Virus record (IMG/VR): IMGVR_UViG_3300032223_000637
Coordinates: 1 to 54,163 of that record
Source of the DNA: a virus
Taxonomy: Duplodnaviria > Caudoviricetes
Direction: 5' to 3' (one strand)
DNA: 54,163 nucleotides
Part shown: one piece after another, positions 1 to 50,862 of the stretch
Position numbering within the stretch: the stretch's first letter is position 1
Layout: every line of letters begins with the position of its first letter
Program-made: the position numbers and the translations under genes
The notes under the pieces: model-generated
Database searches by the model: none
Told to the model about the DNA's origin: nothing
What the model saw: only the letters and a program-made list of their open reading frames with translations

Positions 1-503
1 GGGCCATAGGGAACTTTGTTTGCTTCTACAAAATAATTTGCATAGAATGCCTTAGCCAACGGAATGTCATTTCCTATGATAGTTTTAAGATAAACATCCT
101 TGGCACGTTCTTGTCGCATTATAGAAGTGATCCTGCCCATATCTAACTGATTTATAGGAACATTGTCCATATCAGTCCAACCATCTAACCAAGGAGCATA
201 GTCGGTTTGCAGTGCGTGTATGAATTCGGTGCCCTCTCCTGCCCAGTCTGTAAACTTGCCAGCCATCTTAGGTGTAGCATTAACACGGCGAACAAAATCC
301 TCAGCGTCAATTTTAAGATGTTTTAGTAGTCCGATAAATGTAGAAGTTCCGCTTTCGCCTGCGATAATCGGAGGACGTTCAGGATCTTCAACTACAGTTA
401 CACTGAGAGTTGGCCAGTTTCTTTTTAAGAATAATGCAGTTAACCATCCTGCACTGCCTCCTCCGAGCACAACTGCTTTAGAATTTGTATTGAAGCGATT
501 CAT
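1..503 (-). CDS. Flavin-dependent tryptophan-halogenase-like protein (N-terminal part only; runs off the window edge)
   Basis: Not in the ORF track. Manual translation from ATG at 503 gives MNRFNTNSKAVVLGGGSAGWLTALFLKRNWP...PIIAGESG...NATPKMAGKFTDW: GxGxxG FAD motif plus the conserved Lys region. Overlaps the stop of the adjacent halogenase. Confidence 0.85.
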   Translation of the reverse strand, partial: MNRFNTNSKAVVLGGGSAGWLTALFLKRNWPTLSVTVVEDPERPPIIAGESGTSTFIGLLKHLKIDAEDFVRRVNATPKMAGKFTDWAGEGTEFIHALQTDYAPWLDGWTDMDNVPINQLDMGRITSIMRQERAKDVYLKTIIGNDIPLAKAFYANYFVEANKVPYG

Positions 504-1983
504 ATCTTTCCTTGATTTTTTCTAGACATACACGATGAGGCCAAGTTTCTACATTGTCGGTATACTGAGTATTTTCTCTCATTATCTCATTGTTGATTTC
601 GATGTACTTGTGCATCTGGCTTTCATATTTTTCTTTGATTTTTTCTGTGTTAAACATACGAAGCCCGTGCATTACCTGAGTATAACTTAGCTGGGTAAAC
701 AACTGCATTGGATGATTAAAATAATGCGGATGCGGCATATGATTCTTAAAGTAGTCTAGATAATCTTTATTGAAATCAGTGATAGCCATTTCGTTTTTAC
801 ACCAGCGCCAAAACTCTGTATCACTGCGTTCTGTGAAATAGTGCAGCTGAATAAAGTCGACAATATTCTTGGCAACAACACTCATATCTTGATTGTATTT
901 CTTCGGAGCGATGTCTGATCCTTTTTCATAAAAGAATATCGCAGGCAACAGCATAAATGACTGCTGTATTGTTGTGCCTATGCTGCTGGCCTCTAATGGC
1001 TCGACGAATATTCCGCTGAGTCCTATGCTGACACAGTTCTTAATCCAAAATTCTTCAACATATCCCGCACCAAATTTTACTCTACGACCAATCTTAAGCT
1101 CGTCAGTGATGCCTAGATTATTAGCATAATGCTGTGATACTTCATCGTAGGCTTTGGTTTCATCTATGAAACTATCACAGAATACATAACCATTACCAAA
1201 TCTTTCCTGTGTGGGAATGCGCCACACCCATCCGCTGCTTAATGCAGTTGATTCTGTGTAACTTGGAATTTCTTCTTTGTATCCTGTAGGAAAAGCCAAT
1301 GCTGAATTCATTGGCAGTTGGTTAGTACAGTCGATCCACTTGGCTCCTAGTTTAGAAGCAATCACTCTGCGGAAGCCACTACAGTCAACAAAGAAATCAT
1401 AACTGTGTGTTGTGTTGTCTTTGTCTAGCAACTCTTTGACATAGCCTTGCTCGTCTAGAATTACATCGTTGATTTCTGTATCTACAATATTGATGTTACG
1501 TTCTTTACAGAGTCTATGTAGGTAGTCGTTTAACTTGAATGTGTCAAAATGATACTGCGCAAATATTTCGTGCAGCGGCTCTGGATGTCTGCTGAGTTTA
1601 CTCCATTTAAAACAAGTATCTAAAGGATCGTAGTTGTTGGCAACCATATGGATCCAAGTAAAAGGCAAGCCGTTTTCTTTGCTGTGTCCACCAAATGTTT
1701 CCATCAGGCTGTGGAAATAGTGTGTGCCGTCGCCGTGCCAATCTGTAAACTTAATGCCCATCTTAAACGTAGCACCTGTTTCTCTAACAAGATCAGTAAC
1801 GTTAACGTCAATGTGTTGGATAAATTTACGCCAGTGTTCTGTAGATCCTTCACCTACACCAATAATACCTAGTTGGCTAGACTCGATCATTGTAATTTTA
1901 AGATCAGGATAGGCTTTGCGCATCATAAGAGCAACAACACAACCGCTGGTGCCACCGCCTAAAATACATAATGAATCTATCAT
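478..1983 (-). CDS. Flavin-dependent tryptophan-halogenase family protein (PrnA/RebH-like)
   Basis: GGGTSG, IGVGEGS, ATFKMGIKF (catalytic Lys position), FVDCSGF, GWVWRIP (WxWxIP), FVEPLEAS; 501 aa. Confidence 0.9.
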   Translation of the reverse strand: MIDSLCILGGGTSGCVVALMMRKAYPDLKITMIESSQLGIIGVGEGSTEHWRKFIQHIDVNVTDLVRETGATFKMGIKFTDWHGDGTHYFHSLMETFGGHSKENGLPFTWIHMVANNYDPLDTCFKWSKLSRHPEPLHEIFAQYHFDTFKLNDYLHRLCKERNINIVDTEINDVILDEQGYVKELLDKDNTTHSYDFFVDCSGFRRVIASKLGAKWIDCTNQLPMNSALAFPTGYKEEIPSYTESTALSSGWVWRIPTQERFGNGYVFCDSFIDETKAYDEVSQHYANNLGITDELKIGRRVKFGAGYVEEFWIKNCVSIGLSGIFVEPLEASSIGTTIQQSFMLLPAIFFYEKGSDIAPKKYNQDMSVVAKNIVDFIQLHYFTERSDTEFWRWCKNEMAITDFNKDYLDYFKNHMPHPHYFNHPMQLFTQLSYTQVMHGLRMFNTEKIKEKYESQMHKYIEINNEIMRENTQYTDNVETWPHRVCLEKIKERYESLQYKF

Positions 1984-3467
1984 AGTTTATAAACCTTATC
2001 TGAATAACGCTCTTTGACAATATTTACAGCTTCTCTACTGGTGTAGAATTTTGTGTCTTTTTCCGACGGCACTGTTGAGTAATGATATCTCACAGCTTCT
2101 ATGAAATGATGAAAGTGCGTATCATATTGCTGTTTGATTTTTTCTACATCGAACATTCTAAGTCCGTGCATTACCTGCACCCAATTTAAAATATCGTAGA
2201 TACAATAGTTTGTAGTAGGCAGTGCCAATTGATTGATAAAATTAGTTTTAAAGATTTCTAAATGTTCAGCATTGAAATCTGTCATTTTTAAATTGTTTTT
2301 ACACCAACGCCAAAATTCTGTGTCATTGCGTTCTGTGAAATAATGCAGTTGTATAAAATCTAAGATGTTGGTCATAACTTCGTCGAAAATCTTATTGTAA
2401 TGTTTTTCTGTTACAGTATCGTTGCGCTGCCAGGTCGACAGTGCACCAGCTAAAACTCGTGACTGTTGTACTGTTGTTGATATGCTGCTGGCTTCTAATG
2501 GTTCTACAAAACTGCTACTCAGCCCAACACTGACACAGTTCTTAACCCAAAACTTATCGACCTTTCCGGAAACAAAGTTGACCTTACGTGCGATTTTAAT
2601 GGGATCGGCAAACTCTTTTTGTATTTCAGCGATAGCCTGATCTTCGGAAATAAATCGATCACTGAAAACATAGCCGTTGCCAAATCTATCCTGTACAGGA
2701 CTGCGCCAATGCCATCCGCTGCTCAATGCTTTGGCTAGGGTGTATGGCGGAATTTCTTCTTGATAAGGACTAGGAAATGCGATAGCTGAATTCATTGGCA
2801 GATACTCTGACCAATCTACCCAAGTAGTTCCTAGCTTAGAAGCGATCACTCTGCGGAATCCACTGCTGTCTATGAAAAAATCAGCAGCATATTTGTTATT
2901 GTCAGTGTCAACAATAGACTCTACAAAGCCTTCTTGATCCAAAACAGCATCTACGATTTCAGCTTCAATGACTTCTATGTCACGTTCGCTGCATTTACCT
3001 AAGAAAAACGCATTTAGTTTTTCGCTGTCAAAATGGAATTGATAAAAATTATCAGCCAGCGGTTCTGCGTGTAGCCCACGCATCGCTAGATCCCAATGCA
3101 TCTTACTGTTGTCAATGCCGTCACGGATCATAGACATCATCGTGTAAGGACAGCCAGTGTAGGGATCTTGCACAGCCATATATTCCGGTAAACTGTGGAA
3201 GTAGTGTGTACCATCACCGTGCCAGTTTTCGAACTTAATGCCGCCTTTGAGTGTGGCGCCACACTCTTTGATGATTTCCCAATTGGCGATTCCTGTAGCC
3301 TTGGCAAACAAATCCCAGTGTTCTGTAGAGCCTTCGCCGACGCCGATGGTTCCTATCTTAGTTGATTTAACAACTGTGATTTTTAAATTAGGCAATGATG
3401 CTCGAAGATATAGCGCAGTCATTAGTCCTGCATTGCCGCCACCAAGCACAGTTAGTGTTTTAATCAT
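1980..3467 (-). CDS. Flavin-dependent tryptophan-halogenase family protein (paralog)
   Basis: GGGNAG, IGVGEGS, ATLKGGIKF, FIDSSGF, GWHWRSP, FVEPLEAS; clearly paralogous to 478..1983; ATGA-type overlaps. Confidence 0.9.
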   Translation of the reverse strand: MIKTLTVLGGGNAGLMTALYLRASLPNLKITVVKSTKIGTIGVGEGSTEHWDLFAKATGIANWEIIKECGATLKGGIKFENWHGDGTHYFHSLPEYMAVQDPYTGCPYTMMSMIRDGIDNSKMHWDLAMRGLHAEPLADNFYQFHFDSEKLNAFFLGKCSERDIEVIEAEIVDAVLDQEGFVESIVDTDNNKYAADFFIDSSGFRRVIASKLGTTWVDWSEYLPMNSAIAFPSPYQEEIPPYTLAKALSSGWHWRSPVQDRFGNGYVFSDRFISEDQAIAEIQKEFADPIKIARKVNFVSGKVDKFWVKNCVSVGLSSSFVEPLEASSISTTVQQSRVLAGALSTWQRNDTVTEKHYNKIFDEVMTNILDFIQLHYFTERNDTEFWRWCKNNLKMTDFNAEHLEIFKTNFINQLALPTTNYCIYDILNWVQVMHGLRMFDVEKIKQQYDTHFHHFIEAVRYHYSTVPSEKDTKFYTSREAVNIVKERYSDKVYKL

Positions 3468-39775: not shown

Positions 39776-40963
39776 ATGCTAGAATCAACCTTCATCGAAG
39801 ACGTCTTTATCGAATTTTATGACTTTGCCAATGCCAACTGCATTGTTATAAATCAGGCGGATCAATCAGCTTGCCATAGTTTTGCCACAGTAATCGAAAG
39901 TGGTAAACACCTTACAGAGGCTCAAGGAAACTACATCCTAAAAATCCTCGAAAAACACAAAAAATCGATGGTGATGGCCGGTTTTGATTATCGCAATATT
40001 TTACTATCCGATCTCAAATGGAAAAATCCGTTTCGTGTAATAGATCTAAGTAAAAAGATTTATGTAGAAAAAAACAAAGATGGAAAAATTTTCGTTTGTC
40101 TTAAATTTCCATATCAGTTGAAGAAAGAATTTGAGACAGAAATTGAAAAACGTGGAAATTTTGCCTCCGAATGGGATCCTGAAAAGAAAATTAGAATTTT
40201 AGATATCTACGAAACCAATCTCATTCAACTCTATGAATTTGCTCTAAAACATAATTTCGAAATCGACGAAACGCTGTTAATAGCTCTTGGCGAAGTTGAA
40301 GAAATTTGGCAAAATTCTGAGGAAATTTTACCAGGTTGTGAATTGACTGCTAACTGGATAACATTGTTCAATTGCACTAGTGAAATTGACGAATGGTGGA
40401 AGAATCGCAGCACAGGAAATTACAATTCTGATTTATTGTTGGCAAAAAGTATGGGTTATACCTACACCGGAAAACCCCTTACTGTGGTGGAAGAAATAGC
40501 GGTATCTGACAACAATCATTTTTGGATCAAAGACTACAAAACTTTTTTCAATCTCACGAGAGAAGTTGACGGCAAGGTAGTTTACGTTATCGATCGTGCA
40601 AGTTCGCCAGTTGAAACCACTAAAGAGTACATTACAAATTTGATAGAAAATGGGGTAGAAAAATCCCAAATTCGCGTGTGCTTTAGACTTGAAAAGAATG
40701 ACGATAAGACCGGGTTTAATCAATGGGTCAAAGACGAAGGCTATGGCGGCAGCATTGATAATGCAAAGTTTTATATTTTCAACGGCAAGCCTGCAAAGTG
40801 GTTGTTTAAAGATATAAATTCTGTTAAAATACTAGTTAGTAATAACGTTTATCCACAGACAGGCCCTATCACAAGAGATTGGTTTGACTATCATCCTTGT
40901 GTGATTTATCTTGGAAATGTTAAGCCTACTGAAGTGAGGAATAAGAAAATTGTCGAGTTGTAA
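39776..40963 (+). CDS. Hypothetical protein upstream of uvsW
   Basis: 395-aa ORF with no motif I recognise. Confidence 0.75.
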   Translation: MLESTFIEDVFIEFYDFANANCIVINQADQSACHSFATVIESGKHLTEAQGNYILKILEKHKKSMVMAGFDYRNILLSDLKWKNPFRVIDLSKKIYVEKNKDGKIFVCLKFPYQLKKEFETEIEKRGNFASEWDPEKKIRILDIYETNLIQLYEFALKHNFEIDETLLIALGEVEEIWQNSEEILPGCELTANWITLFNCTSEIDEWWKNRSTGNYNSDLLLAKSMGYTYTGKPLTVVEEIAVSDNNHFWIKDYKTFFNLTREVDGKVVYVIDRASSPVETTKEYITNLIENGVEKSQIRVCFRLEKNDDKTGFNQWVKDEGYGGSIDNAKFYIFNGKPAKWLFKDINSVKILVSNNVYPQTGPITRDWFDYHPCVIYLGNVKPTEVRNKKIVEL

Positions 40964-42404
40964 ACTCATAATCAAAGATGAAGTCAATATTAAAGTCGAA
41001 GGACTTAGTATTGAAACACGAAGAAAAATCGTCAACAAATTAAAGTTTGATTTACCATATGCTCGCCATATGCCAGCATATAAACTCGGACGTTGGGACG
41101 GAACAAAAACATATTTTGGCATTGGTGGCAACGGTTTCCTTGCACATCTTGATGTGATACTTCCTATCATCGAAGACTCTGGATATGAGATAGAAGTCGA
41201 AGATCTTAGACAACATCGAGACATTAAATTCCAACCAGTAGATGAAAACTATTGGGCTGATAAAGGTAAGACTTGGCCTAAAGGACATCCAGAGGCCGGT
41301 AAGCCTATCGTACTACGTGACTATCAATATGATGTTGTCAATAAGTTTTTAGAGAATCCGCAAAGTCTACAAGAAGTAGCAACTGGTGCTGGCAAAACCA
41401 TTACAACTGCTACATTAAGTGCGTTGTGTGAACCATACGGACGCACAATGGTAATTGTTCCTAACAAGAGTTTAGTTGTACAAACAGAAGAAGATTATAT
41501 TAACCTAGGATTAGATGTTGGTGTATATTTCGGCGATAGAAAAGAACTAGGTCGCACACATACTATCTGCACGTGGCAAAGTCTTAATGTATTGGATAAG
41601 AAAAGTTTTGATCAAGATACTATGACGTTGGCAGAATTTGCCGAAGGTGTAAACGCAATTATCATTGACGAAGTACACCAAGCTAAAGCAGATGTACTGA
41701 CAAAACTACTAACACAGAATTTTAGAAACTGTTCTATCCGTTGGGGACTAACAGGAACTGTGCCTAAAGAAGCTTGGGAATTCCAAGGCATACTAGCTAG
41801 CATTGGACCTGTAATTAATCAAGTATCAGCAAACGATTTACAAGAAAAAGGTGTATTAGCAAACCTGCAGATTAATGTATTACAGACCAGCGAAGTTCAG
41901 GTATTTAGAAGTTTTGCAGACGAATACGCATTTTTGGTAACTGACGATTCTAGGATTACTTGGATGGCAAATAAAATAAAAGAATTCAGTGCCACTGGTA
42001 ACACTCTGGTATTAATCAATAGAATTGACACAGGAAATAAGTTAATTGAACGTATTCCAGATGCCGTGTTCGTCAGTGGTGGAATGAAACTCGACGATAG
42101 GAAAGAAGAATATGACGAAATTAAAACCAGTGATAATAAGATTATTGTGGCAACATACGGAGTGGCTGCTGTGGGGATTAACATTCCTCGTATTTTTAAT
42201 CTTGTTTTGGTGGAGCCTGGAAAATCTTTTGTCCGTGTTATCCAAAGCATTGGGCGTGGGATAAGAAAAGCCGAAGATAAAGACTTCGTACAGATCTGGG
42301 ACATCACTAGTGCCTGCAAATATTCAAAGCGACATTTAACAGAAAGAAAGAAATACTATAAGGATGCCAAGTATCCTTTTACAATAACCAAGGTAACTAT
42401 ATGA
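40950..42404 (+). CDS. uvsW: SF2 DNA helicase, UvsW-like
   Basis: LRDYQ, ATGAGKT, IIDEVH, GLTGT, VGINIP, QSIGRGIR; TTG start with a GAGGA SD. Confidence 0.92.
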   Translation: MSSCKLIIKDEVNIKVEGLSIETRRKIVNKLKFDLPYARHMPAYKLGRWDGTKTYFGIGGNGFLAHLDVILPIIEDSGYEIEVEDLRQHRDIKFQPVDENYWADKGKTWPKGHPEAGKPIVLRDYQYDVVNKFLENPQSLQEVATGAGKTITTATLSALCEPYGRTMVIVPNKSLVVQTEEDYINLGLDVGVYFGDRKELGRTHTICTWQSLNVLDKKSFDQDTMTLAEFAEGVNAIIIDEVHQAKADVLTKLLTQNFRNCSIRWGLTGTVPKEAWEFQGILASIGPVINQVSANDLQEKGVLANLQINVLQTSEVQVFRSFADEYAFLVTDDSRITWMANKIKEFSATGNTLVLINRIDTGNKLIERIPDAVFVSGGMKLDDRKEEYDEIKTSDNKIIVATYGVAAVGINIPRIFNLVLVEPGKSFVRVIQSIGRGIRKAEDKDFVQIWDITSACKYSKRHLTERKKYYKDAKYPFTITKVTI

Positions 42405-42907
42405 GAATTTTAACATTAAACAATACGGCGTTTGACCTAAACGACCTACCAGATGAGGTAGATGAGGATACAAGGTTCAGTGTACTTGATAACAGCAGTC
42501 CCAATGAACCAGATTTCTTTTTTATGCCTTTGATCTTCCTAGAGTCGTTTAACAGTCCTGCGATCCTATTAAATATTGGTGGATATGAAATACAAATGCC
42601 ATTAGATTGGTGTATGGTAGTAGGCGATAAAGAGTGCGGACTAGACCCAGAAGTACTACCTCTTACCAGCATCAATGAACGTGGGTTTGATGCATTTATT
42701 TTTAATCCGGTTAAAGGATTCAAAGCAGAATTTATGAACATCGAGATAGTTAATATCTTCCAAGATGTTAAATGGTATTTTCCAAAGATGAAAAATGGTC
42801 AGTTGCTAACTGTACCATTACACGATGGCGAGAACCCGCCCTGTGCTTATTTTGTCAAAGAAGTGAGTCGTCAGAGTGAGGTATTGCAATTAGATAAGAT
42901 TCTATAA
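42401..42907 (+). CDS. Hypothetical protein
   Basis: 168-aa beta-rich ORF; ATGA overlap with uvsW. Confidence 0.7.
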   Translation: MRILTLNNTAFDLNDLPDEVDEDTRFSVLDNSSPNEPDFFFMPLIFLESFNSPAILLNIGGYEIQMPLDWCMVVGDKECGLDPEVLPLTSINERGFDAFIFNPVKGFKAEFMNIEIVNIFQDVKWYFPKMKNGQLLTVPLHDGENPPCAYFVKEVSRQSEVLQLDKIL

Positions 42908-42908
42908 T

Positions 42909-43205
42909 ATGGGACAACTTAAGCCAGACGCAACATACATTTACGAAAGAGCAGATGGTGTTACCTATGCTCGAGAATTTGGTGCATTGCCAAATGAACG
43001 TTTTCCGATTGGCTGGGACTATCGACCAGATGATCCAAATTTTGATCCTCGTACCAGCGATGGCCGACCACTGCACGATCATTTAATGGAAGACAAATTA
43101 TGGGGCGATGTTCGACGAGAGGCAAGGACTAATCCTGTCTTGCGAGATGCGTTAGATCGTGCTATACTAATATATCACTTGAGTAAAAAAGATGGGACAG
43201 AATAA
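42909..43205 (+). CDS. Hypothetical protein
   Basis: 98-aa ORF within the operon. Confidence 0.7.
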   Translation: MGQLKPDATYIYERADGVTYAREFGALPNERFPIGWDYRPDDPNFDPRTSDGRPLHDHLMEDKLWGDVRREARTNPVLRDALDRAILIYHLSKKDGTE

Positions 43206-43671
43206 ACACGTAGACCTTTTTAAGGATATGATTCCAGCAGTAGATCTTGGATTACGAGATCTATGGGATGCAGCCACTGAAGAAGGCAAGAAAGAAATCA
43301 AAGGCGATTTCTGGAATCTCAATCGTTATATCAGTAACGTAAAAAGTTCTGATAGAGAATTGAAAGAACACTTCTTGCTAACAACAAATGAGTTCTATAA
43401 CAAGAATTGGAATGACATTCAGAAGCATCCAAAGTTAGTTTGGCAGACTCTTTGTATGGCCAGCCACGAAACTAAGAAAACATATTTTCACGAATGGCTT
43501 CCGCTGAAGCGTGAGAAAAACAAGAAGGAAGAGTTTCTAGCAGAATTATTTCCGGATATGAAAAGAGCAGACATAGAAACATTGGCTGCAATTACAACAG
43601 ACAAAGAAGTTAAGGCATACTGTGAGAAACTTGGTTGGGACAAAAAACAAATCAATGCAATTAAACTATAA
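43192..43671 (+). CDS. Possible clamp-loader small subunit (gp62-like)
   Basis: LNRYIS...NEFYN...HP.L....L....F.EW pattern, size and replication context. Confidence 0.4.
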   Translation: MGQNKHVDLFKDMIPAVDLGLRDLWDAATEEGKKEIKGDFWNLNRYISNVKSSDRELKEHFLLTTNEFYNKNWNDIQKHPKLVWQTLCMASHETKKTYFHEWLPLKREKNKKEEFLAELFPDMKRADIETLAAITTDKEVKAYCEKLGWDKKQINAIKL

Positions 43672-44338
43672 ATGCGAATACTGTAAAAAACTGTTTGCCA
43701 AAGAAAAAACTTTGGGCGTACACGTTTGTGAACAGAAGCGTCGTCATTTATCAAAGACAGAAAAGCACGTTCAGGCCGGACTGTTGACGTTCCAAAGATT
43801 TTATGATTTTACCAACAAAGGAAAAACTCCAAAGACCTTTGATGATTTTGCAGATAGTCCTTACTATACTGCCTTTGTGAAGTTTGGAAGTTTTTTAGTT
43901 AATACAGCACCAATATATCCAGAAATGTTTATTGACTTTGTTATACGAAGTGGTGTAAAATTAGATCATTGGTGCAGAGATGAATTATATGATCAATATG
44001 TGTCAGAATTGATAAAGAAAGAACCTGCAGATGGAGCCATACAACGAACCATCAAAACAATGATGGATTGGGCTGATGCTAACTCTGCTCCGTGGGAACA
44101 TTATTTTCAATATGTGAACTTAAATAGGGCCACCCACGATATTAAAGAAGGTTTGATATCGCCGTGGGTATTGTTAAATACCAAATCAGGAAAAGAATTG
44201 CTGAAGAGGATGAATGATGAACAGTTAGAAATTGTAGGTCCTGTAATTGATCCACAATTTTGGATACGTAGATTCAAGGCTTTGCCCGCTGATATTGAGC
44301 TGGTAAAGGACATCATCAAGGAAGCTAAAATTCTATAA
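43655..44338 (+). CDS. Zn-finger protein (C2H2/C2HC-like N-terminus)
   Basis: YKCEYCKKLFAKEKTLGVHVC; start moved to ATG 43655. Confidence 0.65.
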   Translation: MQLNYKCEYCKKLFAKEKTLGVHVCEQKRRHLSKTEKHVQAGLLTFQRFYDFTNKGKTPKTFDDFADSPYYTAFVKFGSFLVNTAPIYPEMFIDFVIRSGVKLDHWCRDELYDQYVSELIKKEPADGAIQRTIKTMMDWADANSAPWEHYFQYVNLNRATHDIKEGLISPWVLLNTKSGKELLKRMNDEQLEIVGPVIDPQFWIRRFKALPADIELVKDIIKEAKIL

Positions 44339-44343
44339 AATAT

Positions 44344-44568
44344 ATGCCAAAAAGACTAAAAGAAGAAATAATTGAAGAAGAATTAAAAGAGAATGAAGAA
44401 TTCATTTCTAGAGATGATATAGAGATAGAGGTTGTAGTTGGCAATGAATCCCCAGATGTCTATGTTAAGTTCAGCGGATTTGAAGACGAAGAAGATGCAG
44501 AAGAATACGCACAATTTTTAGCAGACACGCTGCCATTATTGCTGTTCGAAACAACGAGGTTAAATTAA
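44344..44568 (+). CDS. Small, highly acidic protein
   Basis: 74 aa, very Glu/Asp-rich. Confidence 0.65.
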   Translation: MPKRLKEEIIEEELKENEEFISRDDIEIEVVVGNESPDVYVKFSGFEDEEDAEEYAQFLADTLPLLLFETTRLN

Positions 44569-44750
44569 TGAAAGAAAGAACACTGAAAGACGGAACTCAA
44601 GTCGAAGAACTCGATTTTCCAATCACATTAGAAGTACATACCAAATGTCCAAGTAAATGGAAACTTGTTGACTTAGAAACAGGCGAGGAGTATATTGGTG
44701 TTAATACCATTGAACCATATCGCCAGTGGAAGCGAACTAACAATGCCTGA
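44568..44750 (+). CDS. Small hypothetical protein
   Basis: 60 aa; TKCPSKWKLVDLETGE; TAATG coupling. Confidence 0.65.
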   Translation: MKERTLKDGTQVEELDFPITLEVHTKCPSKWKLVDLETGEEYIGVNTIEPYRQWKRTNNA

Positions 44751-45321
44751 TATCGACATAGACTTCGTAGATAGAGAACAAGCATTATCTCTATTCAAAC
44801 ATACCAGAGCTAGCAGAGAAGAAGATTCGAAACTAGTTAAACATAATACTGGTGTGTATTTTCACGAAGTTCCAGTCAATGCTTTAGACAACGTCTGTGC
44901 TGTTCCTTATGAACAAGCAGAAGAAAGAGGATATTTTAAAGTAGACTTCCTCAATGTCAGTATCTATAAAGGTGTGAGAGATGAAGCACATCTTGAAAAA
45001 TTAATGGAGACAGAACCACTATGGGATCTACTGGAACAGGACGAATTCACGAATCTGCTCTTTCACGTGAATGGGCACGGGCACGTATTGAGGAAAATGA
45101 AACCGAAAAATATAGAAGAGCTCGCGGCTTGTCTGGCAATAATACGTCCGGCGAAAAAGCATCTGTTTGGCCGGCCGTGGACAGAAGTATTAAAAGAAGT
45201 ATGGACGAAACCAACGACTGAAGATTATTATTTTAAGAAGTCACACGCTATTGCGTATGCCACTGCGATTGTGGTACAAATGAATTTAATTTGTGAAGGT
45301 GTTAGTTACGAATTTAGTTAG
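44743..45321 (+). CDS. Miniature DNA polymerase III alpha (DnaE/family C)-like protein, 192 aa
   Basis: PDIDIDF, KHNTGV, GYFKVDFL, LFHV, LAIIRP, YYFKKSHAIAYA in DnaE order. Confidence 0.85.
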   Translation: MPDIDIDFVDREQALSLFKHTRASREEDSKLVKHNTGVYFHEVPVNALDNVCAVPYEQAEERGYFKVDFLNVSIYKGVRDEAHLEKLMETEPLWDLLEQDEFTNLLFHVNGHGHVLRKMKPKNIEELAACLAIIRPAKKHLFGRPWTEVLKEVWTKPTTEDYYFKKSHAIAYATAIVVQMNLICEGVSYEFS

Positions 45322-45689
45322 GTTGCTTTTCTAACTAGCGTAATGCTCTTACGTTTAATTCGTTTAACAATAATATCATTTAAGCTAGTACACGGTCCTA
45401 AGATTACCTTGACATCCTTGGTACTGAAATTTCGTATAGCATAACGGAATGCTATAATCTCTTTGTTTAAGAAAATATTAATAGGAATTTGCCTGTTTGA
45501 TTCCCACCACCAAACTTCGCCTAATTCCAAGAATTTACGTTTTTCTTCATCAGTTTTAATAGCAGTATAATCGTAGAGACTAGTAACAGCAGAATCTTGG
45601 TTGATTATGATGCCCACGTATTCTTGGTTAACGTGTGTTATTATACTGATAAACGGGAAGTTGTCTTGTAGGTTTTCTGTTATTCTCAT
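45318..45689 (-). CDS. Hypothetical protein
   Basis: 123 aa; EYVGII, WWWESNRQIPINIFL; convergent overlap with the mini-DnaE. Confidence 0.7.
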   Translation of the reverse strand: MRITENLQDNFPFISIITHVNQEYVGIIINQDSAVTSLYDYTAIKTDEEKRKFLELGEVWWWESNRQIPINIFLNKEIIAFRYAIRNFSTKDVKVILGPCTSLNDIIVKRIKRKSITLVRKAT

Positions 45690-45718
45690 CGATAAATACT
45701 ATAAAGGTCCGCTAATGT

Positions 45719-46840
45719 ATGCAATTTAATTCAGTTTATTTATATCCAAATAAGATAGACGTATTCACAAATGCGTTAGCTTCCTGGCAAACAGAGAGGT
45801 ATCGTAGAGTGTATAATCGTAATCTAAAAGTGTTTCGAGGGGTAGACAATCGCATTGATCTACAAGTTCGTAATTCTGACCAAAAATCTGCTGACATTAC
45901 CGGCTCCGTTTTGGTATTTAACATCGTAGCCAGGGAGACCAAGGACTTAGTGATTAAGAAAGACTGTATCACTGTCGCAGCATCTACCGGCAAGGTTTAT
46001 GTAACGTTTACAGAAGCTGATTTGTTGGCTCTTGAAAATGGATTCTACAACTACAGTGTTATACAAGAAGTAAGAGAAGCAATTCCTGATACAGACACAT
46101 ATCGTGTTGTTACAAGAACTCCAATGTTCGTTGATAGCCAGTACGGTGCTGTTGCGACCTTGGAAATATCCGGTGATATCTCCGGTGATGTACAATCTAG
46201 TATCGTAGTAACAGAGTTTTCTTACACAGACCCTGTGGCCTATGGATACACAACACCTCCATCTTTTATCAGCAGTATTATCAGCGGATCACCTAACTTA
46301 TCTACTCCACAAAGTCTACATACCTTTGCATTTTATTGCACAGATTACAGAGGTAAAATTACTATCCAAGGAAGTATGAGCAACAGCTCTACTCCAGAGA
46401 ATGAGTTAACTAGCTGGTATGATATTCCAGATAGTGCTATGAGTCCTGGAGGTAACAATTTTGATCCAGCTGGTGCAACAGTAACCTACAGAAACGTAGT
46501 AGGCAAATGGAATTGGTTTAGAGTTAAACAGATAGCCAAACAGGGCAGTTCTGCTCAATTTACAATACAACAAACATCAGGTGGTAGCTATGTCGTTAAC
46601 CTAGATCAAGCCGGAGAAAACTACAAAGTATCCGAACGTGTTTATATTTCCGGAGCAGATCTAGGTGGAGTTGATGGTGTTAACGATCTAAACATAACAG
46701 TTACCAATATTGCAGGCAATGGCGAAATAACCGGCTTTACCTGGACTGGCGCATCTATCGTAGGTTATAAAACCTTTGTGAAATTAGGATTTAAATCGCC
46801 AACTGACCGCGGAACACTTGACAAGATACTATACAGATAA
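45719..46840 (+). CDS. Putative virion/baseplate-associated structural protein
   Basis: Beta-rich; GADLGG....NDLNITV segment resembles GSNLGG....NDATITV in the giant protein; TAAATA at 45693-45698. Confidence 0.5.
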   Translation: MQFNSVYLYPNKIDVFTNALASWQTERYRRVYNRNLKVFRGVDNRIDLQVRNSDQKSADITGSVLVFNIVARETKDLVIKKDCITVAASTGKVYVTFTEADLLALENGFYNYSVIQEVREAIPDTDTYRVVTRTPMFVDSQYGAVATLEISGDISGDVQSSIVVTEFSYTDPVAYGYTTPPSFISSIISGSPNLSTPQSLHTFAFYCTDYRGKITIQGSMSNSSTPENELTSWYDIPDSAMSPGGNNFDPAGATVTYRNVVGKWNWFRVKQIAKQGSSAQFTIQQTSGGSYVVNLDQAGENYKVSERVYISGADLGGVDGVNDLNITVTNIAGNGEITGFTWTGASIVGYKTFVKLGFKSPTDRGTLDKILYR

Positions 46841-46846
46841 TATACT
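46818..46846 (+). promoter_or_regulatory. Sigma70-type promoter
   Basis: TTGACA-17 nt-TATACT; ATG 6 nt downstream. Confidence 0.8.
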
Positions 46847-46852
46847 GTATGT

Positions 46853-47863
46853 ATGACTCTGGTTGTTGATACATTTCGAACGCTAATCCCGCCACGTGCT
46901 AAATCGAGCCCATCTGGCTGGACTAGTTTCAATGCCCCGTGTTGCCATCATCGAGGACATAGTCAAGATAATCGTAAACGCGGCGGACTAAGGTTTGACC
47001 AAGGTATCGTTTATAATTGCTTCAATTGTAAATTCACAGCTAGTTGGTTACCAGGAAGACCATTATCCGGTAAATTCCAAAGCCTATGCCGTTGGATGGG
47101 CGCAAGCGACGACACAGTCAAGCAAATGGTCTTTGAAGCACTCAAGACCGAATCCCCAGAATATGAACATAAAGTAGAAGAGCCAAAGTTAACGTTTGAG
47201 CCAAAAGCCTTGCCGGAAGGTTCGCTGTCTCTAAAAGAGTGGGCAGGTATGGTAGACGACTTACCAGAAGAGTACAAAGAAAAATTCATAGGAGTTTTAG
47301 GATATATTGTTGATCGAGGATATGATCCTTATGATGGCAATTTCTATTGGAGTCCTGGTGACGGATACAGTGATCGGGTGCTAATACCGTTTACATATCA
47401 AGGTAAAATAGTAGGAAATACGGCACGTAAAATAACAGACGGACGCCCAAAATATCTATCAGATCAACATCCACATTTTGTGTTTAATGTTGACGCACAA
47501 TTAGAATCACACAAGTATGTATTTGTCACAGAAGGACCATTTGACGCCCTTGCGATCGGCGGGGTTGCACTTCTCACTAACGATGTTGCCGAACAACAAG
47601 AACGAATAATTAATAGTCTAGGCAGTGAAGTTATTGTGATACCAGATCAAGACGAAGCAGGCCTAGTGCTAATTAAACGAGCAATTGAGTGTGATTGGGC
47701 TGTGGCATTTCCAAATTGGGATAGTGATGTAAAGGACGTTGCTGATGCTGTACAGCGATATGGACGATTGTTTGTAACAGTAGATGCTATCAAGACAGCA
47801 CAGAAAGGTGAGATCAAACTTACTATGGCTTTAAAGCAATTAGAACAGAGATTGAAACGATGA
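46853..47863 (+). CDS. gp61: DNA primase (gp61-like)
   Basis: Zn-binding CC...YNCFNC, R.LIPF...G.TAR, PKY, TOPRIM VTEGPFDA and PDQDEAG, KDV. Confidence 0.88.
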   Translation: MTLVVDTFRTLIPPRAKSSPSGWTSFNAPCCHHRGHSQDNRKRGGLRFDQGIVYNCFNCKFTASWLPGRPLSGKFQSLCRWMGASDDTVKQMVFEALKTESPEYEHKVEEPKLTFEPKALPEGSLSLKEWAGMVDDLPEEYKEKFIGVLGYIVDRGYDPYDGNFYWSPGDGYSDRVLIPFTYQGKIVGNTARKITDGRPKYLSDQHPHFVFNVDAQLESHKYVFVTEGPFDALAIGGVALLTNDVAEQQERIINSLGSEVIVIPDQDEAGLVLIKRAIECDWAVAFPNWDSDVKDVADAVQRYGRLFVTVDAIKTAQKGEIKLTMALKQLEQRLKR

Positions 47864-47964
47864 TTAAAAAACTTCTAGCATTAATTAAAAATTATAGAGA
47901 GGAAAGGGCTTTTAAAAAGAAGCTGGCAGAAATGCGTAAACGTGACCCTTTCATTTACAAATGA
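47860..47964 (+). CDS. 34-aa basic peptide
   Basis: MIKKLLALIKNYREERAFKKKLAEMRKRDPFIYK; ATGA overlaps at both ends; below the ORF-track cutoff. Confidence 0.65.
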   Translation: MIKKLLALIKNYREERAFKKKLAEMRKRDPFIYK

Positions 47965-49430
47965 TTACCTGGGGCGTATCAGCAGGAGCCCATAATGCTG
48001 CCCTTGCCGTATTCAAAGACGATGAGTTGGTATTTGCCAGTTCGTCAGAAAGATTTAGTAAAATTAAAAATGATCCAGACCTGTGTCACGAACTAGTTAA
48101 TCACGCAATTAACTTACACGGTCGACCAAATGAAGTATGCTGGTATGAGCGTCCGGTAAAAAAAGCCTTTAGAAAACTATTTGCAAAACAAGGTTGGCAA
48201 TTAGAAAATCTAAAAATGTATATGAATAGGTTTGCTGTAACTGCACCTATTAAAACCTGCGATCATCATCTCAGTCACGCTGCTGGCGGTTTCTACACAA
48301 GTCCATTTGAAGAAGCCTGCGTATTAGTAATTGATGCCATTGGTGAATTTAAAACCTGCAGTATATGGTCAGCTAGAAAGGATAAACTGACCTACATCTC
48401 TGGGTTAGATTATCCAACTAGTGCTGGATTGTTTTATTCAGCAATGACACAACGAGTAGGTCTTAAACCTATTGAAGAAGAATATATCCTTATGGGTATG
48501 GCAGCATATGGCAATGCTAATCGTTTATCTAGGGATATGCTGACAGATTTTATCTCATTCCCAAATGACGATTATCAAAATCCTTTTCGTCTTAAACAAA
48601 ATCTCCATAGGGGATGTGACTGGTGGCGGCCTGAATTGAATACGCAACAAGACTTTTACGATATTGCCGCTGCCACCCAATCTATCTACGAGATGATGTT
48701 TGAAAGAACTTTATATAAAGCAATGGATTCTGTTGGCAGTGAAAATCTAGTGTTAATGGGAGGGTGTGCATTAAACTGTGCTGCCAACTCAATAGCCTAC
48801 AAGTATTTCAAGAACGTATGGATTATGCCGGCACCAGGAGATGATGGTTCGGCTATCGGTGCGGTATTAGCACACAAAAAGAAGCATATCAATTGGACTG
48901 GTCCTTATCTAGGCTATGACATAAAGCCAACAGCAACTAACGAAGAAATTGTCGAGTATCTATTAGAAAATAAGATCTGCGGAGTTGCACGTGGCCCTGC
49001 AGAGTTTGGTCCACGAGCCTTAGGTAATCGTAGTTTGTTGGCGGATCCTAGAGATTTGACTATAAAGAAAGAAGTCAACAAAATAAAACAACGCCAACAG
49101 TTTAGACCATTTGCTCCGGCAGTGTTAGAAGAGTTTGCCAATGATCATTTTGATATGCCAACTAACTCAACCCCATATATGCAATATGCTGTGAAGTGTA
49201 AAACACCTAAAACATATCCAGCTATTGTACACGAAGACGGGACCAGTAGAGTTCAGACAGTGCCCGATGATGGATCACCTTTTAGAATGTTGTTAGAAGA
49301 ATGGTATCAGAAATCTGGTTCTCCTATGTTGTTGAATACCAGCCTTAACATCAAAGGACAACCTATGGTAAATGATGCTGCTGATTCTCGCAATTTTGAA
49401 AGCCTATATGGTGTTAAAGTGTTTAACTAG
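47961..49430 (+). CDS. Carbamoyltransferase (CmcH/NodU/TobZ family)
   Basis: ERFS.IKND, HHLSHAA, VIDAIGE, EYILMGMAAYG, GGCALNC, EFGPRALGNRSLLADP, FRPFAP, VHEDGTSRVQ, LLNTSLN. Confidence 0.95.
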   Translation: MITWGVSAGAHNAALAVFKDDELVFASSSERFSKIKNDPDLCHELVNHAINLHGRPNEVCWYERPVKKAFRKLFAKQGWQLENLKMYMNRFAVTAPIKTCDHHLSHAAGGFYTSPFEEACVLVIDAIGEFKTCSIWSARKDKLTYISGLDYPTSAGLFYSAMTQRVGLKPIEEEYILMGMAAYGNANRLSRDMLTDFISFPNDDYQNPFRLKQNLHRGCDWWRPELNTQQDFYDIAAATQSIYEMMFERTLYKAMDSVGSENLVLMGGCALNCAANSIAYKYFKNVWIMPAPGDDGSAIGAVLAHKKKHINWTGPYLGYDIKPTATNEEIVEYLLENKICGVARGPAEFGPRALGNRSLLADPRDLTIKKEVNKIKQRQQFRPFAPAVLEEFANDHFDMPTNSTPYMQYAVKCKTPKTYPAIVHEDGTSRVQTVPDDGSPFRMLLEEWYQKSGSPMLLNTSLNIKGQPMVNDAADSRNFESLYGVKVFN

Positions 49431-49434
49431 AGTG

Positions 49435-49440
49435 TATAAT
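49435..49440 (+). promoter_or_regulatory. -10 box TATAAT ahead of the helicase
   Basis: TATAAT-taaagt-ATG(49447); no good -35 element. Confidence 0.5.
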
Positions 49441-49446
49441 TAAAGT

Positions 49447-50862
49447 ATGATTAAAGATTACGGAATAGAAGTACAGAAGTTATATCTAGAAATTATGTTA
49501 TCAGATGCTGAAACGTTTGTGCGTTGTCAAGGCATCTTTGACCATACTTTGTTTGATCGTAAACTTCAAGATGCAGCAGAGTTTATGAACACCTATGCCA
49601 GAGAGTATAATGTGTTGCCAGACTACAATATGGTTAATGCTAGTTGTAGAACAGATCTAGTGAAACCAGAAGACCTTAAAGATGGCCATATGGATTGGTT
49701 TATGGACGAGTTCGAACAGTTCACTCGTCACAAAGCATTGGAACGTGCGATTATTAATTCAGCAGACCTGTTAGAAAAACACGACTACGGTGCTGTTGAA
49801 GTTATGGTCAAAGAAGCAGTACAGATCGGTCTTGCCAAGGATATGGGCACAGATTACTTTGCTGATCCACGCAGTCGATTGATGAAGATCAAGGACAAGA
49901 ACGGACAAGTAAGTACTGGTTGGCCGACATTAGACAAACGTTTGTTTGGTGGTATGAACCGCGGAGAGTTGAATATCTTTGCAGGTGGTTCAGGAGCAGG
50001 TAAGTCGCTATTCTTAGCGAACCTAGGAGTGAATTGGGCACTACAGGGGTTGAACGTAGTTTACCTTACATTGGAACTTTCTGAAGAGTTAGTGTCAATG
50101 CGTATCGATGCAATGCTAACAGGCATTCCAACAAAAGAGATTTTCAAAGACTTAGATGATGTTGAGATGAAAGTTAGAATCATCGGTAAGAAATCTGGTG
50201 CAATGCAGATCAAGTATATGCCGTCTGGGAAAACCGCAAATGATCTAAGAGCGTATTTGAAAGAGTTTGAAATTAAAACTGGACGCAAAGTTGATGTGTT
50301 GTTAGTTGACTATTTAGACTTGTTGATGCCTGTGAGCAAGAAGATTAGCCCGGCAGACTTGTTTATCAAAGACAAGTATGTATCAGAAGAACTGCGTAAC
50401 CTAGCAGTTGAAAAGAACTGTGTGTTTGTCACAGCGGCACAGTTAAATCGTGGGGCTGTTGAAGAAGTTGAATTTGATCACAGTCATATTTCAGGCGGTT
50501 TGTCAAAGATTCAAACAGCAGATAACGTGTTTGGTATCTTTACATCACGAGCAATGCGTGAACGTGGACGCTATCAAATTCAGTTAATGAAAACTCGTTC
50601 ATCAAGCGGTGTTGGTATGAAAGTTGATTTAGAGTTTAATCTAGAAAGCCTTAAGATCACAGACCTGCCAGAAGATGAACAAGAAAGCAATGGTGCAACA
50701 TCTAGAGGTGCTAGTTCAATTATTGACAGCATCAAACGTAAAACAGAAATCACACAGCGTGAAGAACCCACAGATGGTGCTCCTGTTGGCAAAGTACGTG
50801 CTACCGTAGAATCCACAAAACTACGTGAAATTTTAAACAGTATGGGCGGAGATGAAGAGTAG
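49447..50862 (+). CDS. gp41: Replicative DnaB-like helicase
   Basis: STGW..LD..L.GG, GGSGAGKS, TLELSE, VDYLDL, AAQLNR, MKTR. Confidence 0.93.
   Translation: MIKDYGIEVQKLYLEIMLSDAETFVRCQGIFDHTLFDRKLQDAAEFMNTYAREYNVLPDYNMVNASCRTDLVKPEDLKDGHMDWFMDEFEQFTRHKALERAIINSADLLEKHDYGAVEVMVKEAVQIGLAKDMGTDYFADPRSRLMKIKDKNGQVSTGWPTLDKRLFGGMNRGELNIFAGGSGAGKSLFLANLGVNWALQGLNVVYLTLELSEELVSMRIDAMLTGIPTKEIFKDLDDVEMKVRIIGKKSGAMQIKYMPSGKTANDLRAYLKEFEIKTGRKVDVLLVDYLDLLMPVSKKISPADLFIKDKYVSEELRNLAVEKNCVFVTAAQLNRGAVEEVEFDHSHISGGLSKIQTADNVFGIFTSRAMRERGRYQIQLMKTRSSSGVGMKVDLEFNLESLKITDLPEDEQESNGATSRGASSIIDSIKRKTEITQREEPTDGAPVGKVRATVESTKLREILNSMGGDEE

Follow-up and report, generated by a model that had tools for sequence, protein, structure and literature searches.

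What can a phage protein of 192 residues do with the catalytic motifs of DnaE (Pol III alpha), the family C replicative polymerase of bacteria? The question is raised by a gene in IMG/VR virus record IMGVR_UViG_3300032223_000637 (Duplodnaviria; Caudoviricetes). The entire record, 54 kb of DNA and about 15% complete, was analysed and is called the window here. The gene lies at window:44743-45321 on the (+) strand, and we refer to its product as the C-unit, the C-terminal half of a split minimal Pol III alpha. The initial annotation of the window had described a small DnaE that keeps the family C catalytic motifs, and had proposed that it works either as a minimal nucleotidyltransferase or as one subunit of a split polymerase. 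The analysis presented below places the C-unit, very probably, in the split minimal Pol III alpha family of RaK2/PA5oct/Atu_ph07-like (group 2.2) jumbo myoviruses. The explanation that we regard as likely overall is that it is the product of one of two genes for a split nucleotidyltransferase, active together with a separately encoded N-unit and having a short-patch role beside a family B polymerase (PolB).

A shortened palm and fingers of Pol III alpha

Translation of the gene is uninterrupted and yields 192 residues followed by a TAG stop, with every motif that had been listed for it: PDIDIDF (residues 2-8), KHNTGV (33-38), KVDFL (66-70), LAIIRP (131-136) and YFKKSHAIAYA (163-173). Its ATG is located within the last codons of an upstream open reading frame (ORF) of 60 amino acids (aa), with an 8-nucleotide overlap with the TGA of that ORF (ATGCCTGA). 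This overlap makes translational coupling plausible, as had been suggested. At the other end, the TAG shares nucleotides with the stop codon of a 123-aa gene that converges on it from the opposite strand.

Sequence profiles and predicted structure agree on the relationship of the C-unit to Pol III alpha. It matches phrog_11778 ("DNA polymerase", 197 positions) with an E value of 9.6e-68, residues 3-185 corresponding to profile positions 8-193. A profile of 91 C-unit homologs retrieved only Pol III alpha chains from the PDB (nine of nine distinct sequences, best E 4.4e-5), and paired KIDxL, IRP and FKKSH with KFDFL, FRPG and FNKSH of the E. coli enzyme. With hhalign, the same profile was aligned to a partial cellular DnaE (P0413) over the DxD stretch alone. 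The AlphaFold2 model of the C-unit, computed with 88 homologs, has a mean residue confidence (pLDDT) of 96.8 and a pTM score of 0.89. The top 14 PDB chains returned by Foldseek for this model were all Pol III alpha (best E 4.5e-4, TMq 0.51). Likewise, the top 15 entries in VIA-align were all family C enzymes, either DnaE or PolC (Z 5.9-9.6, 172-190 residues aligned), and the first unrelated entry followed at Z 3.7. Model residues 1-190 correspond to chain residues 461-841 of the Taq enzyme (3e0d_A; Z 9.6, root-mean-square deviation (rmsd) 3.6, 188 residues aligned), residues 1-189 to 400-781 of E. coli DnaE (2hnh; Z 8.8, rmsd 4.0, 183 residues) and residues 1-189 to 971-1296 of PolC (3f2b; Z 9.3, rmsd 3.4, 186 residues). 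With 188 of its 192 residues aligned to Pol III alpha, the proposal of a DnaE-derived protein is borne out.

In DnaE, the region matched by the 190 or so residues of the C-unit is about 381 residues long (Taq 461-841; E. coli 400-781), close to the roughly 360 residues over which the motifs had been estimated to extend. In the profile alignment with E. coli DnaE, gaps fall before residue 538 and between residues 641 and 743; by the domain limits of DnaE, these would correspond to the thumb and a portion of the fingers. The C-unit ends at about E. coli residue 781 (Taq 841), with the distal fingers and the C-terminal region absent, and the clamp-binding, OB and tau-binding parts of DnaE presumably lie beyond this point. 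Because some 190 residues inside the matching DnaE span have no counterpart, the C-unit is not a simple truncation, and in this respect the initial annotation was correct. Its description of the difference as an internal deletion presumes a direction of evolution, and the passages on these proteins in Iyer et al. (2021) read the minimal form as ancestral-like.

What the C-unit contains is a Pol-beta-like palm part with the catalytic triad, homologous to Pol III alpha: two strands with three metal-binding carboxylates (D3, D5 and D68), K66, and shortened fingers with the RP-x-K and KKSH motifs. It has neither the first strand and helix of the core with GRGS, nor the thumb, the PHP domain or anything after about residue 781 of E. 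coli DnaE.

A second gene, probably for the rest of the active site

In DnaE and in all Pol-beta-like nucleotidyltransferases, a strand and a helix with a triphosphate-holding G-S motif precede the DxD strand. The C-unit begins exactly at the DxD strand and is devoid of the GRGS nucleotide-binding element; the full palm, GS motif included, is not carried on this one chain. The idea that the catalytic apparatus had been kept must therefore be amended: it is incomplete in the C-unit, and in relatives the first strand and helix of the Pol-beta-like core, with G(R)GS, are encoded by a distant gene.

This second gene was detected with PF07733 in all three complete isolate genomes that carry a C-unit, those of Phosso, Atu_ph07 and PA5oct. 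We call its product the N-unit, a separate protein of about 160-180 aa carrying the GRGS element (161-177 aa in relatives; 177 aa in Phosso and Atu_ph07, 169 aa in PA5oct). Its family is phrog_11127 (E 2.2e-50), and its match to PF07733 covers positions 21-95 of the profile. All three isolate N-units end in ...VWGVGRGSSVASYVLFLIG.H.V.S..Y.LD..EFL[NKE]-stop, an ending of the GVGRGS type, and the C-unit begins with (M)PDIDIDF. Across 82 aligned N-units, G-x-G-R-G-S-S is invariant. N-unit residues 1 to about 60 (P0396; 1-72 in the fused protein P0237) fall outside both the alignment to the DnaE palm and the Pfam match. The two genes lie far from each other. Their distance is smallest in RaK2, 121Q and CBB (31-34 kb) and in PA5oct (43.5 kb), and reaches 182 kb in Atu_ph07 and 224 kb in Phosso; in four long IMG/VR contigs that are closer to the window it is 160-185 kb.

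That the two units belong together is suggested by several lines of evidence. An N-unit is present in four of the seven long IMG/VR contigs that carry a C-unit, including the only one that is 100% complete (G004). In the phage collection, 96 records match the C-unit and 121 the N-unit, the latter total including weak matches to phages with full-length DnaE, and both units share host groups: Escherichia (34 records each), Erwinia (8 each) and Salmonella (8 each). Natural N+C fusions occur in three metagenomic clusters (P0237, P0399 and P0400), in one frame with a short linker and a total of 375-376 aa. These clusters are 78-81% identical to one another, come from short contigs (2.4-5.9 kb) and are rare, representing 3 of the 16 matches in that length range. 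In the model of the fused form, the N half (72/73-182) superposes on the beginning of the DnaE palm, from residue 271 in E. coli, 290 in Taq and 818 in PolC, with Z scores of 8.0-13.0 and family C enzymes in all 13 entries listed.

Complex prediction points in the same direction. When the C-unit of the window was paired with the N-unit of the complete contig, all three runs gave an ipSAE of 0.90, against 0.00 for the highest of three controls; in the calibration, the mark was reached by 58 of 80 solved complexes and by 2 of 110 mismatched pairs. At least 97% of the contacts agree between runs, and the partner has a pLDDT of at least 77. The predicted interface spans C-unit residues 1-9 around the active-site strand, residues 6-8, beside the catalytic aspartates, contacting N-unit residues 126-127 just before GRGS. 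Such modelled contacts would be the beta-sheet completion expected of a single Pol-beta-like core.

These findings bear directly on the possibility that the 192-aa protein is by itself a minimal nucleotidyltransferase. Its confident, compact fold (pLDDT 96.8) and the presence of all three carboxylates are what such an enzyme would show. The chain nevertheless starts at the DxD strand without G(R)GS, an element that in relatives resides on a separate co-occurring protein and in the three fused clusters is joined to the C-unit, and the predicted interface covers the very residues around the active-site strand. Since the C-unit has no G(R)GS element and a distant gene encodes one, we consider stand-alone activity very improbable. 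The other proposal of the initial annotation, one subunit of a split polymerase, is favored by the separate N-units, the natural fusions and the complex prediction.

A polymerase divided over two genes has a precedent in cyanobacterial DnaE, which is split by an intein and encoded by two genes, the halves being ligated by protein trans-splicing. An intein-mediated split was rejected for the phage proteins, as there is no extra sequence at the end of the N-unit or at the start of the C-unit. With no room for intein halves at the junctions, assembly would be non-covalent. The phage system thus resembles the cyanobacterial one in being a two-gene family C polymerase, and differs from it in that the split has no intein and is located inside the catalytic core.

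In the mechanism that we propose, the missing core element would be provided by the N-unit, which ends exactly where the C-unit begins, and the two would form a single active site without a covalent link, one completing the beta-sheet of the other. In it, the triphosphate would be held by the GRGS of the N-unit. The C-unit would bind two Mg ions via D3, D5 and D68, and would contact the nascent pair via K66, RP-x-K and KKSH. Such a heterodimer would probably add nucleotides to a primer on a template, and it may act beside the family B replicase, for instance to extend or hand off primers, to fill gaps or to repair DNA. An enzyme with neither a thumb nor parts for clamp binding and proofreading would be of a distributive, short-patch type.

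The novelty implied by the initial annotation does not hold, as the split minimal Pol III alpha of these phages was already published in 2021 (Iyer, Anantharaman, Krishnan, Burroughs and Aravind, Viruses 13:63, PMC7824862). The relevant passages of that paper describe it for group 2.2 jumbo phages as two separately encoded units, an N-terminal one that binds NTP and a C-terminal one that binds Mg and the template; these phages also have a family B polymerase, and other Pol III domains are absent. They propose that the split module may work together with the family B polymerase, either in the synthesis of one strand or in repair, and that minimal Pol III alpha may model the ancestral enzyme. 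Split architecture, phage group and PolB companion are the same in the relatives of the window, and phrog_11778 and phrog_11127 correspond to the C- and N-unit, respectively. As far as those passages go, nothing essential differs, the window copy coming from an uncultivated relative. The window gene is therefore a new environmental member of an already described group. Beyond those passages, the present analysis gives the precise position of the split, the naturally fused proteins, the figures on selection and a predicted interface. Genome papers label the pieces simply as "DNA polymerase III" subunits (PMC11895373; PMC11242549), and in the PA5oct omics paper the terms "DNA polymerase" and "gp220" do not occur.

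The same passages of Iyer et al. (2021) describe group 3.2 jumbo phages with a host-like, single-chain Pol III alpha that includes the PHP domain and is their only replicase. Full-length phage Pol III alpha (phrog_405) shows distant homology to both units (E 5.7e-9 for the C-unit, 1.2e-9 for the N-unit). In contrast to that of group 3.2, the module of the window type consists of two minimal parts and exists next to a family B polymerase. With bacterial DnaE and PolC (PDB 2hnh, 2hpi, 3e0d, 3f2b) it has in common the palm carboxylates, the lysine before the third aspartate, and the RPG and NKSH finger motifs. Unlike those enzymes of more than 1100 aa, its palm is divided over two polypeptides of about 350-370 aa in total, with no PHP domain, thumb, distal fingers or anything after about E. 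coli residue 781.

Conservation and the kind of activity

Selection on the C-unit was assessed at two distances. Among 91 diverse full-length homologs, K66, D68 and P136 are kept in all 91, R135 in 90, D3, D5 and G37 in 89, H34 and H168 in 88, D7 in 87 and K165 in 83. Closer to the window, all 81 genes compared (the window gene and 80 IMG/VR loci) are intact and keep D3, D5, D7, K66, D68, R135, P136 and H168, and the IMG/VR ORFs are 188-193 codons long. The ratio of nonsynonymous to synonymous substitutions (dN/dS, Nei-Gojobori) has a median of 0.151 and a range of 0.036-0.350, based on the 286 pairs, out of 3240, that have 0.05 < dS < 1.5; another 2944 pairs were saturated.

The family is also large. 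Clustered at 50% identity, it comprises 427 clusters at E ≤0.001 and 282 at ≤1e-10; at 90% identity, at least 7996 of 8000 scored candidates match, with lengths of 188-199 aa among the 120 matches listed. For the N-unit, at least 7989 of 8000 scored candidates match. A C-unit relative is encoded in 565 of the 599 matched IMG/VR stretches. The 96 matching phage records all reach a coverage of at least 80%, and the genomes measure 141-490 kb among the 40 matches listed. The window C-unit is at most 55% identical to any isolate copy and 86% identical to the nearest metagenomic one, and a megablast search of window positions 40000-50000 against isolate phages gave no match. One homolog of 233 aa (P0263) corresponds to the C-unit over its first 113 residues or so and then continues in unrelated sequence; it may come from a chimeric contig or be a disrupted copy.

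Loss of the aspartate triad among homologs, or a short length caused by faulty assembly, had been named as outcomes that would speak against a functional protein. Both were rejected, as intact ORFs of the same length occur throughout the relatives and the triad is retained in close and diverse homologs alike. It can still be asked whether the protein has lost catalysis altogether, either as a leftover of DnaE or as a DnaE-derived replisome component with a purely structural or regulatory role. Much of the parent enzyme is gone, and no activity is reported in the literature found, as would be expected in that case. The residues that are nearly invariant, however, are the catalytic ones, in the C-unit as in the GRGSS of the 82 N-units, and the low dN/dS and the intact state of all 81 close genes are equally at odds with decay. 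We consider a non-catalytic role highly improbable.

An active enzyme need not copy a template. The catalytic triad and the GS motif are found throughout the Pol-beta-like superfamily, many members of which are template-independent. The two units could thus form an active Pol-beta-type nucleotidyltransferase that is non-templated, tailing 3' ends of DNA or RNA or making a nucleotide product or signal. In line with this, the roughly 190 residues of the DnaE span that have no counterpart include the thumb, which holds the primer-template duplex, and the phages already own a complete family B replicase. On the other hand, the part retained outside the palm is the DnaE fingers element, which adjoins the template and the incoming nucleotide, and its RP-x-K and KKSH motifs are kept in 82-91 of the 91 homologs. 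Moreover, the best structural matches are family C polymerases only, with no other nucleotidyltransferases among them, and the gene is located among replication genes. A non-templated enzyme is in our judgment unlikely, though less so than the two alternatives above.

Returning to the split enzyme with a short-patch role beside PolB, its parts do not all deserve the same confidence. An active heterodimeric nucleotidyltransferase is favored on balance, and a templated DNA polymerase is a possibility that we put somewhat below even. Priming, end processing and nucleotide signalling, named in the initial annotation as possible roles, would be conjectural. More tentative, and rather doubtful, is the proposal that the C-unit and its distant partner are the smallest known template-copying family C polymerase, a non-covalent heterodimer of about 350 aa working beside PolB without thumb, PHP, OB or clamp-binding parts.

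A number of observations weigh against these readings. Single-sequence searches are weak: Pfam gives DNA_pol3_finger only, at 18.5 bits and under the 22-bit cut-off, and phmmer against Taq Pol III alpha gives an E value of 0.005. No N-unit was found in the window, either by tblastn with three N-units (best E 0.096) or with PF07733 at E values up to 10. This is as expected for 54 kb, since the genes of relatives lie 31-224 kb apart, but with the partner gene outside a record that is about 15% complete the partnership rests, for this virus, on its relatives. Three of the seven long contigs with a C-unit showed no N-unit, their completeness being 38%, 56% and 79%. The N-unit in the complex prediction was that of a relative whose own C-unit is 68% identical to that of the window, and the complex score may reflect the model's memory of DnaE rather than binding, because these are halves of a fold that has been solved many times as one chain. 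The model of the fused form has a mean pLDDT of 64.6, its N half alone being usable and its C half poor (below 50 for residues 182-279), so that there is no single confident model of the whole module. Templated synthesis is not assured, as the C-unit has no thumb and only about half of the finger span that it matches. Finally, a full-text literature search found no biochemical study or enzymatic activity of any member of the family, which is no proof of absence in print.

Genomic setting and significance

The C-unit gene is part of a replication block (Table 1), lying between a helicase gene on one side and the primase and DnaB genes on the other. After the helicase gene come several small genes, the phrog_11058 gene, the C-unit gene, the convergent phrog_11637 gene, a gene for a structural protein, and the genes for primase and DnaB helicase; Phosso, Atu_ph07 and PA5oct have this order too. 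The first helicase might be called UvsW-like, judging from its position. The two immediate neighbors of conserved position, of 238 and 123 aa, belong to no recognisable family, and sequence searches of the PDB gave nothing below E 0.3 for either. They are candidate accessory subunits, which might supply the DNA-holding functions absent from the module.

Table 1. Location in the window of the C-unit gene, its motifs and other genes discussed
Feature	Position	Strand	Evidence or context
C-unit: C-terminal unit (metal-binding + abbreviated fingers) of split minimal Pol III alpha	44743..45321	+	phrog_11778, profile search, fold
Codons D3-I-D5-I-D7, DxDxD strand	44749..44763	+	aligned to MPDIDTDF strand starting at Taq Pol III alpha residue 461
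Codons K66-V-D68, third carboxylate	44938..44946	+	aligned to KFDFL strand, E. coli DnaE
Codons R135-P136-A-K138, RPG-type finger motif	45145..45156	+	aligned to ALFRPG, E. coli DnaE
Codons K165-K166-S167-H168, FNKSH-type finger motif	45235..45246	+	aligned to FNKSH, E. coli and Taq Pol III alpha
Superfamily-2 DNA helicase	40950..42404	+	phrog_16 "DNA helicase", E 1.9e-77
Upstream neighbor, 238 aa, phrog_11058, weak C2H2-like N-terminus	43622..44338	+	upstream on same strand in 80/80 IMG/VR loci; also in PA5oct
60-aa ORF overlapping C-unit start	44568..44750	+	upstream in 28/80 related loci; C-terminal match to phrog_4098, E 1.3e-11
Convergent neighbor, 123 aa, phrog_11637	45318..45689	-	downstream on opposite strand in 79/80 loci; also in Phosso, Atu_ph07, PA5oct
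DnaG-type DNA primase	46853..47863	+	phrog_47, E 1.2e-30
Nol-like carbamoyltransferase	47961..49430	+	phrog_1601, E 1.3e-101
DnaB-like replicative helicase	49447..50862	+	phrog_19, E 1.8e-70
Two tandem tryptophan-halogenase-like genes	478..3467	-	phrog_2928, E ~1e-104 each
Virion structural protein, 2024 aa	6980..13054	+	phrog_5838, E 5.9e-225
Tail sheath, 1131 aa	18341..21736		

T4-like phages had been expected to use a family B polymerase, and this is what the relatives show: PolB is present in all three isolates and in three of four long contigs, including the complete one. A PHP domain was found in none of the three isolates and none of the four long contigs, and the record of the window itself has no match to PolB, PF07733 or PHP. 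PolB is contained in a single frame in Phosso (1013 aa) and in the complete contig (901 aa); it occupies two separate frames in Atu_ph07 (418 and 578 aa) and in PA5oct (825 and 379 aa, about 2.5 kb apart).

The window carries tail sheath, terminase, helicase, primase and DnaB genes and is syntenic with Phosso, Atu_ph07 and PA5oct. Its virus appears to be a jumbo myovirus, judging from the size of its virion structural protein and of its tail sheath. Two other features of the window were recorded. The carbamoyltransferase gene lies between the primase and DnaB genes, a position at which Phosso and PA5oct have an annotated helicase or a helicase-sized gene directly after the primase. The tandem tryptophan-halogenase-like genes represent an unusual auxiliary function for a phage.

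The replicative polymerases of family C are bacterial and unrelated to those of archaea and eukaryotes. Where they came from is an old question, and it bears on the minimal Pol III alpha core. A minimal, split and strongly conserved version of this core would show what the catalytic minimum of the enzyme is, and would also show what role a second, unrelated polymerase can have alongside a family B replicase. The family is widespread in jumbo phages, with its 427 clusters at 50% identity, and the natural fusions offer a ready-made single-chain form of the module. If the smallest-polymerase reading were true, these environmental jumbo phages, a very large and abundant clade, would provide a living model of the pre-cellular core of Pol III alpha and a naturally split polymerase scaffold.

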